A DNA stretch of 64,000 nucleotides, from assembly GCA_048939625.1 (NCBI GenBank), contig JBHLPH010000004.1, positions 32,001 through 96,000 on the forward strand. The letters run 5' to 3'. Under the pieces are notes generated by a model. That model ran no database searches, was not told where the DNA came from, and saw only the letters and a list, made by a program, of their open reading frames with translations. Each line of letters begins with the position of its first letter. The stretch's first letter is position 1. The translations under genes were made by a program, and so were the position numbers. Shown one piece after another: positions 47,568 to 59,832 of this stretch. This DNA comes from Promethearchaeota archaeon. Lineage in GTDB: Archaea; Asgardarchaeota; Hermodarchaeia; Hermodarchaeales; Hermodarchaeaceae.

Positions 47568-48539
47568 ATGGACCTCATCGACAAACAAATTATTTTCGAG
47601 CTTCTGATTAGTTATCGCGCCTCGTACCAAGCTATCGCAGAAAAACTCAATTTATCTGTCAATGCTGTTAAAAAACGATTTGAGAAGTTAAAAAATGTTG
47701 GGATAATCCGCGGTGGAGTTTTAGTTCCAATGCCAGTGATGAAAGGAACTGAAGATTGGCTGGCATTATTACGAATGGATGAAGCTACAGCTTCAGATGA
47801 CAGTCTAGAAAAAATTGGGTCTCACGTACTAGTTCAATCGGGAAGCCTTCTGACAGATGGAAGCATCCTCTGTTTCGGGTTCTATGGCGGAGCACAAGAT
47901 CTTCAGGAGATAGGGGCTTTTCTCCGCCAAGTTCAAGGTGTCAAATCTGTGGAATTTCATACAATTCTAGCACCACAAGGAAAGAAGACTGATTTGGCGA
48001 AGAACGATGTAAAGGTACTCCGATGTCTTCGGGAAGCCCCCCGAATCCCGATTAGCAAAATTACTGAAAAAACAGGTATAAATTCAAGACGAGTTCGGAA
48101 TATTCTGCAAAAATTAATTGGAGAAAACGGAGTCGAACCGATCTATTATATTAATTGGAAATCTCAAGGAAAAACTCATCCGAATGATGTTAGTTTCTTA
48201 GTGAGAGTTCATTGGAACCTAAATGCGGGTGGTTATACTGCCTTTATGATTCAGATTCGACACAAGGAAGGTGTGGAAGAAAGGAAAAAAATTACTGATA
48301 TTCTGACAGATAATTATTCTTTCGAGTTTTGGTATGCCTATGCTTCTGCATTTGAGCCCGTGATATTCTGTGTGTTCTTGGTTGAGCACATGAGGGATTC
48401 GATAGAAATTGTAAAAACAGTAGAGCAGATTCCTCAAGCAGTTGAGGTGTATCCGATTTTCGGGTATCCTACGAAGGTTTTTCGTAGTCAGGTTGATGAT
48501 TATTTTGAAGGAATTTTCGAGAATATTGATCAGTACTGA
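47568..48539 (+). CDS. Tandem Lrp/AsnC-type wHTH regulator (paralogue 1)
   Basis: 'MDLIDKQIIFEL..YRASYQAIAEKLNLSVNAVKKR' plus second HTH 'DVKVLRCLREAPRIPISKI'. Confidence 0.85.
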   Translation: MDLIDKQIIFELLISYRASYQAIAEKLNLSVNAVKKRFEKLKNVGIIRGGVLVPMPVMKGTEDWLALLRMDEATASDDSLEKIGSHVLVQSGSLLTDGSILCFGFYGGAQDLQEIGAFLRQVQGVKSVEFHTILAPQGKKTDLAKNDVKVLRCLREAPRIPISKITEKTGINSRRVRNILQKLIGENGVEPIYYINWKSQGKTHPNDVSFLVRVHWNLNAGGYTAFMIQIRHKEGVEERKKITDILTDNYSFEFWYAYASAFEPVIFCVFLVEHMRDSIEIVKTVEQIPQAVEVYPIFGYPTKVFRSQVDDYFEGIFENIDQY

Positions 48540-48725: not shown

Positions 48726-48869
48726 TCAGCGAATCATAAGCGGAAGTGCCTGTTCGAGACGTGGACCTGCTCGGGGATTGGTTCGACATCCAGCAAATAA
48801 TCGCTCTGCACAGGTCATGCGAGCGACGTGAGCGTGATGATGAAGTTTCCGAGCGGTTTTCTTCTTCAT
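48726..48869 (-). CDS. Basic peptide A, 47 aa (three-member family)
   Basis: MKKKTARKLHHHAHVARMTCAERLFAGCRTNPRAGPRLEQALPLMIR; GGAGG upstream; aligns with peptides B and C. Confidence 0.75.
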   Translation of the reverse strand: MKKKTARKLHHHAHVARMTCAERLFAGCRTNPRAGPRLEQALPLMIR

Positions 48870-56876: not shown

Positions 56877-57677
56877 CTAAGCTGGCTTTGTATTAAAGCG
56901 CTTAGTGTGTCGGTGTCGAAAAACAAAAGTAATTCCGAAAAGGATGACTAGCAATAAAACTCCAAGTCCTAGCCAAAACAGTGTTGTGTAGTTTTGTTCT
57001 TCGAGAGAAAGAATTCCTAAGGTATGGAAGTTGCTGGCTGTTAGTTCACGTGTGACGCGATATGTGTAGATTGCGTGTTGAGAGGCGAGGAGCTCGTAGG
57101 TATACTTGAGAAGAATTCCCTCCGTGTAGTGGAAGTACCAGTTTTCGCTACATTGTTGAAAATCGTCATCAATCGAAAACCATGCAACTGATTGGACTCG
57201 CCAACAGAGAAAGGTTCCGAATTCAAGAGAGATGTAGCTTGATGTGAGAGGGTAATTCCCTGTATACGGGGAGAAAGCCACAGAATGCCCATGGTGCCAT
57301 CTGGAAGTATTGACCCAAAGTGGAGGTTGGAGAGGTCTTTCAAGCAAAGTTCCATTTAATAATATGATTCGCCATGTTGAACTATTGAGGAACATTTCCC
57401 CCTGCAATATATCCTCGTTAGTGGACGAGATATTGATGAGGAAAAGCGAGTTACGTTGCACTGATGTTGCCGATTGGATTGTGAACTGTTCATCCCATTC
57501 ACCCTGCAGGTCATCAGTTACATGGTAGTTGAGAAAAAGCCCAGTGGGTAAAGATGCAAGCCTAGTCGGGATAGAAATTAAGAATGACAGTAATATGACG
57601 AATAACACAAACCGAATTCGTTTCTTTCTTAAAATCCTCATCGTGAACCCTTCAGTGTCAAAGATTGGCATGGGCAA
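56877..57677 (-). CDS. Hypothetical surface protein with N- and C-terminal TM
   Basis: Two terminal hydrophobic helices; 'WYFHYTEGILLKY'. Confidence 0.65.
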   Translation of the reverse strand: MPMPIFDTEGFTMRILRKKRIRFVLFVILLSFLISIPTRLASLPTGLFLNYHVTDDLQGEWDEQFTIQSATSVQRNSLFLINISSTNEDILQGEMFLNSSTWRIILLNGTLLERPLQPPLWVNTSRWHHGHSVAFSPYTGNYPLTSSYISLEFGTFLCWRVQSVAWFSIDDDFQQCSENWYFHYTEGILLKYTYELLASQHAIYTYRVTRELTASNFHTLGILSLEEQNYTTLFWLGLGVLLLVILFGITFVFRHRHTKRFNTKPA

Positions 57678-58635
57678 TCATTTCATCAATCATTGATTCG
57701 CGTAATCCAACATATTTTCGGAGAGGAAAGCTGACCCAAATCTCAACCTTCGAGATATTAGGTGCTTTTCGTATCACGGGAAGGATTTTTTCGGATTCAC
57801 GAATGTGGTTTACAATGAAGACACAATAGATAATCGGTTCAGTGGCAGCAACAAAGGAAAACCAGAATTCGAAGGGGAAGTGGCTTTTGAAGTATTGGAC
57901 AACTCCTTCAGGAGATCCTTTGCCTTCTTCCCAGTTAGTTCGAACAACAAACGCATTACCGCCTCCTGCATTAAGGTCCCAGTAGATGCGAAAATGTAAG
58001 GCAGCTTTGGATTGGCTAATTTCCGGTTTGTATTCTTTATCAACAAGAGTTTCGATGGGAGTTCCAACCTTGCCATGAAAGTCTTGGATGACGCTGCGAA
58101 TGCGTCGAGGTGTTAAACCAGTTTGCTCTGAAATTTGTGAGATAGGCATCCGTGCATCCTCTCGTAGAGATCGGAGGACTTTCAAATGTCCGTCTGTCAT
58201 AGGAATTTTTTGACCACGATCTGCAATGAGAGTGTGAATTTCAACGTTCGCGACGCCTGGCAGTTGGCGAAGAAATCCACCGAGTTCAGATAGACCTTGT
58301 GCTCCGATATATTCTGCGAAGACGAGGATGGATCCATCAGAAAGATAACCAGCACTGAAAACGGATGGATGTGCACCTATGCGGTCTAGAAATTCTGGAC
58401 TGAAATGGGTGTCGCTAAGAGTGATTCGGGCAAGGAACCATTCAGCGTCCATCATGGCTAGACTGAGATACACATAATATCGTTGGATAACTCCTTCTTC
58501 TTCCAGTTTCAATATTCTTTTCTTCACAGCGTTCACTGTAAGGTCTAGCCGAGTTGCGATTGTTTGATAAGTGACTCGACAGTTGGTTGCGAGTTCGAGA
58601 AGAATGCTTTTGTCTACAATATCCAATGGAGGCAC
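57658..58635 (-). CDS. Tandem Lrp/AsnC-type wHTH regulator (paralogue 4, more divergent)
   Basis: 'LDIVDKSILLEL..NCRVTYQTIA..LDLTVNAVKKR', 'WDLNAGG', 'FWFSFVAATEPI'. Confidence 0.85.
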   Translation of the reverse strand: MPPLDIVDKSILLELATNCRVTYQTIATRLDLTVNAVKKRILKLEEEGVIQRYYVYLSLAMMDAEWFLARITLSDTHFSPEFLDRIGAHPSVFSAGYLSDGSILVFAEYIGAQGLSELGGFLRQLPGVANVEIHTLIADRGQKIPMTDGHLKVLRSLREDARMPISQISEQTGLTPRRIRSVIQDFHGKVGTPIETLVDKEYKPEISQSKAALHFRIYWDLNAGGGNAFVVRTNWEEGKGSPEGVVQYFKSHFPFEFWFSFVAATEPIIYCVFIVNHIRESEKILPVIRKAPNISKVEIWVSFPLRKYVGLRESMIDEMIAHANL

Positions 58636-58815
58636 CTTATCTTGGGGGTTGACCTGAATTGGCTGTTCTCGGATATATTTACGAGGAATGGCGAAGCTAG
58701 TCTTTGGATTCTCCGTTGTCAGGAATTCAGCGAGATATAATTCGTAAGCACTCCGGTTTAATCCTTTTGAAATGTAGCATGCCTTTTGAATGCCCTAATA
58801 AAAAATAAATAAAAA

Positions 58816-58940
58816 AGCCGGGTCTTCAGGGTATCCTTCCCCTCCATTTCGGCACTTCCCGGTCCGTGCGCATGGGTGGCAATGGACCATTTTGGACAAC
58901 GGATTCGGAGTTTTCGTCCGGTTACCGAGAAGACCCGGCT
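58816..58940 (-). other. Structured 3' RNA element B (125 nt) followed by U-tract
   Basis: Perfect 12-bp closing stem AGCCGGGTCTTC/GAAGACCCGGCT, inner GGAC/GTCC and GGTCC/GGACC hairpins, then TTTTTATTTATTTTTT. Confidence 0.7.
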
Positions 58941-59000
58941 AAGGTCAGCGTCCAAGGTCCGTGTCACTGGTGTGTCAGTGTCGATCCCTAGTAATCATGA

Positions 59001-59123
59001 TTAGCGTCGTGAAGTTACGACAGCAAAGGTGATTCGGTCTCGTGGAGTGCCTTTGGGGTTTTTCGCACCGGTAACAGCGCGTTCTGCAAGGGCCATTTTG
59101 GCAATTTTCTTTTTCGGAGCCAT
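59001..59123 (-). CDS. Basic peptide B, 40 aa (three-member family; not in ORF track)
   Basis: MAPKKKIAKMALAERAVTGAKNPKGTPRDRITFAVVTSRR; GGTGA upstream. Confidence 0.8.
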   Translation of the reverse strand: MAPKKKIAKMALAERAVTGAKNPKGTPRDRITFAVVTSRR

Positions 59124-59175
59124 TTTTGTTCACCGTCCCGCCGATGCGAGACAATGATACCTAACCCGAAAATTG

Positions 59176-59260
59176 CATATTATTCGATGGGAGCTTGTCA
59201 GTGCAAAAATCCGACAAAAAGAGAGAGAGTGTGCCAACTTTTGCACTAAGTGGTGCAAAA
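59176..59260 (-). promoter_or_regulatory. Conserved promoter box and perfect palindromic operator, unit B
   Basis: Minus TTGCACT-N5-GCTCCCATCGA-ATAATATG; TTTTGCAC-TAAGTG-GTGCAAAA at 59239-59260. Confidence 0.8.
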
Positions 59261-59298
59261 ATCAGGAACGCACCCTGAAAAGGACTTGGGTGGGAGTA

Positions 59299-59423
59299 AA
59301 CCGGGCCTACGAAAGCTCCCGACCACAAGAACCACGAAATTAGATCACCCGTTGCTGAATCGCTACTGCGCCGATTCCCCAGCAACAGGAAGAGGAACAA
59401 GTGGCGGTTGTGTAGGCCCGATT
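59299..59423 (-). other. Structured 3' RNA element C (125 nt)
   Basis: Closing stem AATCGGGCCTAC/GTAGGCCCGGTT (one G.U); inner CCTGTTGCT/AGCAACGGG and GAATCG/CGATTC. Confidence 0.7.
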
Positions 59424-59481
59424 GACGTGGCTGCAAGGGGTTTTTGGTGATCGTTTCTTCACCATAGGGATTCCTCACAGC

Positions 59482-59622
59482 CTAGCGTCGGCTAAGGACC
59501 AGCATGACTGCATATCGAGTCCGAGGTTTTGCTACCGGATGGGGGTTACGGCAGCCGGCTACGGCACGTTCAGTCGCCGACATATCTGCTAGTTTCTTAT
59601 GTTTATGTTCGGATTTGGCCAT
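59482..59622 (-). CDS. Basic peptide C, 46 aa (three-member family; not in ORF track)
   Basis: MAKSEHKHKKLADMSATERAVAGCRNPHPVAKPRTRYAVMLVLSRR; GGAGG upstream. Confidence 0.8.
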   Translation of the reverse strand: MAKSEHKHKKLADMSATERAVAGCRNPHPVAKPRTRYAVMLVLSRR

Positions 59623-59697
59623 CTCAAATCCCTCCAATTGTGTGTCACCAGGATCCCTGTTGGGAATCCCAGAGCAAATACGAATCGGCGTCCGTTT

Positions 59698-59832
59698 GAT
59701 AAGAATCGATGGGAGCAGCCGAGTTCAAAATCCCGCAATTTCCACTTTTGGATTCAGAAATCTTGAACTTCGCAATGCAAAACCGAGTAAGAGGATTTGC
59801 CTTTTTGCGAATTGTTGAACTCTCAAGTGTAA
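59698..59832 (-). promoter_or_regulatory. Conserved promoter box and two phased operators, unit C
   Basis: Minus TTGAACT-N5-GCTCCCATCGA-TTCTTATC; plus TTGAAC-N6-ATGCAA (59763-80) and TTGAAC-N6-GTGTAA (59815-32). Confidence 0.75.

Follow-up and report, generated by a model that had tools for sequence, protein, structure and literature searches.

Two 125-nt elements, B and C, follow two genes for small basic proteins, pepB and pepC, in a 64-kb stretch of a Promethearchaeota archaeon genome (contig JBHLPH010000004.1; the whole stretch is hereafter called the window). Both are selected RNA structures on the transcript strand, i.e., the strand that is sense for the peptide genes. They belong to a family of structured RNA domains of ~115 to 170 nt that occurs in one family of Asgard archaea, in metagenome-assembled genomes (MAGs) labelled Thorarchaeota or Promethearchaeota. 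As an RNA family, it is lineage specific and previously undescribed, and its kind is that of a structured 3'-end element. With moderate confidence, we favor the explanation that B and C are members of a family of RNA modules in the 3' untranslated region (UTR) that form or protect transcript 3' ends and offer a conserved interior to a factor acting in trans. The source genome (G000) comprises 2.31 Mb in 83 contigs (44.6% GC, 88% complete), with the window at positions 32001-96000 of contig C53, and the relevant features of the window all lie on the minus strand. Those that carry the argument are listed here in window coordinates, together with the matches to a covariance model, R1, that we built from P1, the helix closing the elements, plus sequence, using B, C, and their relatives.

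59482..59622, minus: pepC, 46-aa basic protein of the ER..G.(R/K)NP family, stop codon (59482-59484) included
59423 to 59299, minus (RNA sense): element C, 125 nt, starting 58 nt past the pepC stop codon
59293..59425, minus: match of element C to R1, 73.6 bits
Ends of element C, minus: closing helix P1, AAUCGGGCCUAC/GUAGGCCCGGUU
59001..59123, minus: pepB, 40-aa basic protein of the ER..G.(R/K)NP family, stop codon (59001-59003) included
58940 to 58816, minus (RNA sense): element B, 125 nt, starting 60 nt past the pepB stop codon
58807..58942, minus: match of element B to R1, 104.6 bits, E 3e-31, the best model match in the window
58929-58940 paired with 58816-58827, minus: closing helix P1 of element B, AGCCGGGUCUUC/GAAGACCCGGCU
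58790..58815, minus: U-rich tract UUUUUUAUUUAUUUUUU, directly past the 3' arm of element B, likely an archaeal oligo-U termination signal

A preliminary description had given the coordinates of the elements, the 125-nt lengths, and the 60- and 58-nt offsets, and all are correct. Its observation of structured elements behind the peptide genes is confirmed; its interpretation, as processed noncoding RNAs or as a scaffold carrying variable cargo bound by the peptide, is partly supported. As inverted repeats, B and C rank first and second in the whole window, with 83 nt separating the arms in each. Read from the sequence, the ends are AGCCGGGUC...GACCCGGCU in B and AAUCGGGCC...GGCCCGGUU in C, and the proposed ARYCGGR opening and RCCCGGYTT closing were found in both, as well as in a shorter element, A, behind a third peptide gene, pepA. 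All three fold better than dinucleotide shuffles on both strands, with z scores for the sense and antisense strands of -3.1 and -2.6 in B (minimum free energy, -54 kcal/mol), -3.75 and -3.2 in C, and -2.4 and -2.0 in A; the sense strand is ahead in each, by modest margins. Element C contains a long internal hairpin based on CCUGUUGCUG/CAGCAACGGG. The GC content of the element region is 0.50 to 0.56, compared to ~0.40 nearby.

The closing helix, the transcribed strand, and the interior

The genome encodes six paralogues of the small basic protein, identified by tblastn and profile searches: A, B, and C in the window, D (contig C3), E (contig C59), and F (contig C29). A scan of the 420 nt downstream of 62 peptide genes revealed a layout common to many of them. 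Most B-, C-, D-, and F-group genes, and several others, have a 116- to 140-nt element downstream, with (C)GGGUCUUC.../...GAAGACCC(G) as its closing arms and a U-rich tail behind it. The closing helix, P1, is 10 to 16 bp long across the family, with the consensus CGGGUCUUC...GAAGACCCG. In an alignment of 33 sequences, 95.5% of the cells in the 10-bp P1 are paired, and the number of double-change cells is 28, versus 10.4 in shuffles, with none of 500 shuffles reaching as high a value. The pairing collapses once the 3' partner is shifted by 1 to 3 columns. The stems of B and C had been described as differing in sequence yet still able to pair, and this extends to the family, since P1 is kept paired in the 33 homologues with compensatory changes. 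Besides its pairing, the P1 sequence is itself conserved across paralogues and is the most conserved part of the element at that level.

Covariation was found not only in P1 but also in the helices of type C and of types D and I (the latter a further copy in this genome, described below). In type C, 34 pairs are 94.9% paired and nine of them show compensatory double changes, in a structure predicted from the same alignment that was later scored; a CCGUUG block forms the 5' strand of its long covarying hairpin. The P3 hairpin of D and I pairs despite quite different arms (UGCUGG/CCAGCA, GCCGA/UCGGC, and UGGACC/GGUCCA, as tabulated by script).

Which strand is under selection? The stem imperfections had been noted as G.U pairs on the peptide-sense strand, and the counts agree: there are 12 G.U pairs and one A.C in the inner 8 bp of P1, and the corresponding numbers in the type C helices are 37 and 4. 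Non-Watson-Crick pairs that are G.U rather than A.C fit selection on the RNA of the peptide-sense strand, at the level of the transcript. R1 also scores ~100 bits in sense versus ~20 bits in antisense, an asymmetry that is partly due to construction, the sense strand having been used to build the model. A U-tract follows P1 in nearly all copies, and in every B orthologue it consists of U6 to U8.

Between paralogues, the interior of the element has diverged, to the point that B and C are dissimilar in pairwise alignment, and the preliminary description had called the interiors unrelated. This was overstated, as paralogues share blocks. In a wider alignment, B, C, D, and I all have AUCCGUUGUC at ~35 nt from the start of the element; a AUCCGUUG-type block and others are common to B, C, and further paralogues; (A)GGUCCA is common to B and D; and inspection of the sequences shows UGCCACCYAU in both B and F. 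The P3 hairpin of D and I has a C-rich loop of 19 to 34 nt (...CCUCC..ACCUCUUGG), with ACCUCUUGG invariant at the loop end. Among orthologues, element identity is 0.66 to 0.79 (79% for the ten orthologues of type B), versus 0.51 to 0.60 at third codon positions of the adjacent open reading frame (ORF), and the downstream flanks of the B and D types fall below the elements, at ~0.40. With interiors conserved in this way and motifs shared by paralogues, the idea of a variable cargo is unsupported. Nor did we find covariation support for a CUCCG/UGGAG pseudoknot suggested for B: two orthologues lose the pairing, which competes with UCCGUU/AAUGGA.

Copy number, linkage to peptide genes, and look-alikes

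With R1, we found five sense copies in this 2.3-Mb genome: B, C, D, F, and a new copy, I. The 19 genomes of the taxonomic family hold 50 copies, and 41 of these lie on the same strand as a peptide gene, 50 to 222 nt downstream of it, which upholds the proposed linkage of RNA and peptide genes. Copies stand at syntenic positions in up to 10 species of the genus, each orthologue having diverged in place. Five copies in the genome, and mostly peptide-linked ones across the family, are also inconsistent with a miniature inverted-repeat transposable element (MITE) or a repetitive extragenic palindrome (REP), the outcome that the preliminary description had set against its own proposal. In 89 genomes from elsewhere in the phylum, R1 found just two matches, both of them marginal.

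The linkage has exceptions on both sides. An RNA had been proposed behind each peptide gene, and this stands for most B, C, D, and F genes but not for the 25 of 66 peptide genes that have no R1-type element, among them the whole E group and most genes of a second genus. Conversely, eight of the nine unlinked RNA copies are orthologues of I. The I type starts 5 nt past the stop codon of a gene for a beta-lactamase-fold hydrolase with a C-terminal membrane anchor, where there is no peptide gene, and in two genomes the gene ahead of it encodes a double-Lrp regulator rather than the hydrolase. The I type retains the D-type core but differs in the sequence of its closing helix (ACGGCUCCC/GGGAGCCGU). 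Because an RNA of this kind follows a hydrolase gene while some peptide genes have none, an obligate peptide-RNA pair is unlikely. The linkage is strong but not obligate, and the RNA and peptide families have the same narrow range. The I-type copy and the features around pepA are as follows.

G000:C9:32194-32363 (equal to L054:995-1164), minus: I-type copy, ~170 nt, found with R1, orthologous in 8 genomes
48726..48869, minus: pepA, 47-aa basic protein, stop codon included
48717 to 48641, minus: element A, 77 nt, starting 8 nt past the pepA stop codon

Element A had been taken for a shorter version of B and C. It does have their end motifs, but it resembles them at the ends only and is not recognized by R1 (no match at E<=1). 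It is a different, shorter structured element, a separate RNA outside the model family of B, C, D, F, and I. Its inner hairpin is conserved, with a compensatory change, in two orthologues. At the E-type loci (region L004:1370-1490, minus strand, and 10 orthologues), the peptide genes are followed by yet another conserved 3' element, of ~75 nt, AUGAUUACUGUGGGA..., with a hairpin around CGUUGUGGAC and a U-tract.

Two weak, partial look-alikes of the D/I core (AUCCGUUGUCC...AGUAGG), lacking the closing helix, came from 10-mer and nhmmer searches (E ~0.1), at G000:C82:25846-25879 (minus strand) and G000:C23:17396-17429 (plus strand); they could be degenerate relics or chance matches. The GGGYCY-type stem pattern was uninformative as a means of finding copies, as a regular-expression scan of the genome gave 15 matches, versus 15 to 26 in shuffles. 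One stem match from that scan, at C45:37499-37647, is surrounded by densely packed genes and appears to be due to chance.

A putative 3'-end module and competing explanations

What might these modules do? They are always in sense orientation at the end of a gene, no promoter-like AT-rich box lies ahead of B, C, or D, and the I type leaves no room for one, all of which argues for a place in the 3' UTR. The domain would be transcribed in the sense of the upstream gene, as the last part of its transcript; that gene usually encodes a 40- to 55-aa basic protein of an orphan family. P1 would then bring the ends of the element together, with the U-rich tract within a few bases, so that helix and tract would define, and probably protect, the 3' end of the transcript. 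As the preliminary description had remarked, the elements are far larger than a terminator requires, and the excess is ~100 nt of conserved interior. Since this interior is too large and too conserved for a clamp, its role would be to engage a trans-acting protein or RNA, with the interior blocks as the most likely contact sites. In that case, the gene set would have in the module a common element for post-transcriptional control or stability, and perhaps also the source of a stable 3'-derived small RNA.

The nearest known concept, by analogy, is that of small RNAs (sRNAs) embedded in or derived from 3' UTRs, for which there are bacterial examples (CpxQ, SroC, and DapZ) and others from archaeal transcriptomes. 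The likeness lies in a conserved structured RNA at the 3' end of a coding transcript, with a shared terminator and with conserved loop or single-stranded blocks that could be seeds. Unlike those sRNAs, the module described here is reused behind a whole family of paralogous genes and is closed by one long end-to-end helix. The histone mRNA 3' stem-loop is comparable by functional analogy only. In eukaryotes, this 16-nt hairpin, with its binding protein SLBP, coordinates processing, stability, and translation. In both cases, the mRNAs for a family of small basic proteins end in a conserved RNA structure dedicated to them, but the domain here is 125 nt long and has no sequence similarity to the stem-loop, and the peptides are not histones.

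Several points weigh against the 3'-end module. Element C is followed by only a weak U-tract, and a scan for terminator-like features picked out, ~20 nt past it, a small hairpin with a U5 run (59257..59278, minus strand; hairpin, 59262-59278), which is possibly the actual termination point of the pepC transcript and which overlaps an operator-like palindrome of pepB. Archaeal RNA polymerase terminates on oligo-T alone and requires no hairpin, so a terminator role for P1 is an analogy. The type B interior is near-invariant across its 10 orthologues, and its inner helices are neither backed nor refuted by covariation. R1 was trained on peptide-linked copies, which biases detection toward such copies; even so, whole-genome searches would have shown further P1-type copies if these were present. 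Complementarity between loops and ribosome-binding sites was not better than background: RNAduplex comparisons of five loop or single-stranded segments with six peptide starts gave scattered values in the 1st to 3rd percentiles in 30 tests (background, 740 start regions). The C-rich loops have a generic anti-Shine-Dalgarno character only, with no specific signal.

It is tempting to join peptide and RNA directly, such that each basic peptide binds the RNA behind its own gene, with P1 as the docking site and the interior as a specific payload, in an autoregulatory loop or a small peptide-RNA particle. The 41 of 50 RNA copies behind peptide genes, the narrow taxonomic range common to both families, and the conservation of the P1 sequence itself across paralogues are what such a cognate ribonucleoprotein (RNP) would lead us to expect, and the peptides are very basic, with an invariant motif, ER..G.(R/K)NP, that is faintly reminiscent of the arm with which HU binds nucleic acids (E 0.66, not significant). 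However, we consider this possible but unlikely. In 8 genomes, the gene ahead of the I-type RNA is that of a hydrolase or a regulator, and no peptide is encoded there; 25 of 66 peptide genes lack an RNA of this family; the match between peptide and RNA subtypes follows from synteny and is no evidence of coevolution; and the AlphaFold2 (AF2) model of the peptide (pLDDT 66) is helical rather than an HU-like beta arm. The opposite simplification, in which the element does no more than end transcription of short, highly expressed mRNAs or shield them from 3'-to-5' decay and its interior has no function of its own, is rather improbable, even though the element sits at the gene 3' end with a U-tract after it and P1 is its most conserved part across paralogues. 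A GC-rich helix and then a U-run at a gene end are indeed what intrinsic terminators and oligo-T signals look like, but the "loop" here is ~100 nt long, conserved, and internally folded, and a scan for intrinsic terminators (short GC-rich hairpin, loop of 3 to 8 nt, U-run) made no call at B or C. Interior blocks do not vary among the 10 B orthologues, in contrast to the drifting spacer and third codon positions; motifs recur between paralogues, and interior helices covary. A clamp needs no conserved interior of ~100 nt, and the archaeal polymerase stops on oligo-T alone.

An attenuator or riboswitch-like leader, in which pepB would be a leader peptide and element B a switchable terminator for the double-Lrp regulator gene at 57658-58635, would account for the position of element B and its U-tract ~155 nt upstream of that same-strand gene and for the double-Lrp genes near many related loci. 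It is very unlikely, given that the downstream context varies (pepA is convergent with a regulator gene, and D, F, and I are followed by unrelated or opposite-strand genes), that no alternative antiterminator pairing was seen, and that purifying selection acts on the full length of the peptides, which is not typical of leader peptides. We see hardly any room for an element that works as DNA, be it a repeat of the MITE or REP type or a site that folds for recombination, as integron attC does. The superficial likeness is of an ORF and then an imperfect inverted repeat with a variable centre and, in B and C, arms of similar length. REPs, bacterial interspersed mosaic elements (BIMEs), and MITEs are likewise intergenic, imperfect palindromes, and attC sites further share conserved ends and strand-specific folding. 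Yet there are only five copies per genome, fixed at syntenic positions in up to 10 species and diverging in place, with compensatory substitutions, strand-asymmetric G.U imperfections, and interiors that differ strongly between paralogues. Unlike attC sites, B and C have no R''/R' core sites (RYYYAAC ... GTTRRRY) at their ends, every peptide gene is equipped with a promoter-like box, and the syntenic loci have interiors that are conserved among orthologues. Among the identified neighbours (regulators, hydrolases, and transferases), there is no integrase or cassette array, though no search aimed at integrases was made.

Comparison with catalogued RNAs did not place the elements in a known family. 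Rfam 15 gave no match in the 64-kb window at the gathering threshold, and at a permissive E<=10, positions 58700-59700 and the D locus gave one noise match only, outside the elements. ARAGORN found no genes for tRNA or transfer-messenger RNA in the window. Y RNA (the partner of Ro60; YrlA in bacteria) resembles the elements as an RNA of ~100 nt with a conserved end-to-end stem, a variable pyrimidine-rich interior, and a U-rich 3' tail, but the elements lie in 3' UTRs rather than in separate genes and do not match Rfam Y_RNA; a Y RNA/Ro RNP was rejected, as this 88%-complete genome has no match to TROVE/Ro60 (PF05731) while positive controls matched. We also rejected a C/D box sRNA, since inspection found no RUGAUGA in B or C and Rfam gave no match; the spacer does contain an AUGAUGU/AUGAUUA block, yet there is no box D past P1 to match it. 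A type III toxin-antitoxin system (ToxIN-like) does not fit, as the element is single, unrepeated, and downstream of a 40- to 50-aa protein with no PADLOC, Pfam, or NCBIfam match. By inspection, there is no in-frame UGA for a selenocysteine insertion sequence (SECIS) or read-through signal, and the hammerhead-like CUGANGA occurs in the B type only, inside P1.

Asgard archaea are the closest prokaryotic relatives of eukaryotes, and to our knowledge, almost nothing is known of their noncoding RNAs and micro-proteins, most of these archaea being impossible to grow. The elements add a structured RNA family that is new, is supported by covariation, and has a working covariance model, together with an orphan family of 40- to 55-aa basic proteins of the same distribution. 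If the RNA is a shared 3'-end control or a partner of the peptides, it would offer a compact, testable case of how this lineage coordinates post-transcriptional control; should it be no more than a stabilizing clamp, it would still give a useful annotation and a possible transcript-stabilizing tool. More speculatively, peptides and RNA modules might together form a lineage-specific RNP or post-transcriptional circuit, in which a common factor, possibly the peptides, would recognize the shared P1 and AUCCGUUGUC core, and the interiors, including the C-rich, anti-Shine-Dalgarno-like loops, would direct paralogues to different targets. We hold this as a tentative, minority view; if true, it would define a new class of dual-output genes, with a micro-protein and a regulatory RNA from one transcript.

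The peptide family, spacers, promoters, and neighbouring genes

pepA, pepB, and pepC align around M..ER...G.(R/K)NP..P. A profile of the family finds 66 genes in 19 genomes, all in one taxonomic family except for one marginal match (17 of 18 other family members were positive, versus 0 of 42 other genomes of the phylum bar that match), with 2 to 7 genes in each genome that has any. Sources that name these proteins list them as hypothetical, from MAGs of Thorarchaeota, Promethearchaeota, or Hermodarchaeota. When 1.84 billion representative proteins were searched exhaustively by profile, the yield was just 23 clusters, all of them short except for one (1452 aa, with no matched stretch). Differences among orthologues by codon position are 256/120/731 for pepB and 112/60/522 for the D group; this concentration at third positions indicates that the ORFs are translated and under purifying selection, which spans the full length of the peptides. 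The family has no match in Pfam, NCBIfam, or PADLOC, and the ESM Atlas gave nothing above noise. The invariant ER-x3-G-x-(R/K)-N-P motif (alignment A7) resembles the RNP turn (Arg-Asn-Pro) of the HU/IHF DNA-binding arm. A profile search of the PDB gave insignificant matches to the HU beta arm (E 0.66 to 1.3), and an HU-arm fold is unsupported, as the AF2 model (pLDDT 66, low confidence) is a helix-loop-helix with no beta arm. Coding by the elements themselves was rejected; overlapping ORFs, e.g., a 105-aa frame past the pepC stop codon, are unconserved, with 1- and 2-nt indels in orthologues.

The remaining features of the window are the following.

59426..59481, minus: spacer hairpin directly past the pepC stop codon, GCUGUGAGG/CCUUGCAGC around GGUGA/UCACC, minimum free energy -23.4 kcal/mol, z -4.6
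59184..59194, minus: GCUCCCAUCGA box, 61-71 nt upstream of the pepB start, identified by sequence comparison only, likely part of a promoter or operator of the unit
58943..59000, minus: spacer between the pepB stop codon and element B, with a small hairpin and a AUGAUUACU.GGGA block, z -2.8
57658-58635, minus: double-Lrp regulator gene
47568-48539, plus: double-Lrp regulator gene

The spacer after pepC folds as the preliminary description had it, and its outer stem is mostly retained in four orthologues. In the pepB spacer, the AUGAUUACU.GGGA block (about 58975-58995) is one that is also present behind E-type peptide genes. Upstream, pepA, pepB, pepC, and pepE have a common box, GCTCCCATCGA and then an AT-rich stretch, 60 to 70 nt before their starts; a box shared by four paralogous peptide genes suggests a common promoter or operator and hence a regulon. 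Between element C and the pepB promoter region lies a perfect palindrome, TTTTGCAC-N6-GTGCAAAA (59239-59260). Four orthologous loci conserve this palindrome, which resembles an operator of the sort that a dimeric regulator would bind.

At the D locus (L001:2730-2846 and orthologues), there is a clear archaeal TATA-like box, ATTTATAT, as well as a conserved 5'-UTR hairpin (CCCG-N9-CGGG) ahead of a GGTGGT ribosome-binding site and a conserved GATGATGTCAC block 7 to 8 nt before the closing helix of the RNA. A second micro-ORF of 27 aa (MANKKQIQHRNGSNKDYFVYSLILARR; L001:3021-3104, plus strand, or G000:C3:39020-39103), with its own Shine-Dalgarno sequence, separates pepD from the D-type RNA. Conserved at 11 orthologous loci, it has a C-terminal ..LILARR that resembles the C terminus of the peptide family. 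The double-Lrp regulator is a 325-aa protein with two AsnC/Lrp-type helix-turn-helix modules, of which the genome has ~10 paralogues (contigs C53, C9, C61, C45, and C81), and a gene of this kind adjoins peptide/RNA loci in many related genomes, the I-type RNA locus included.

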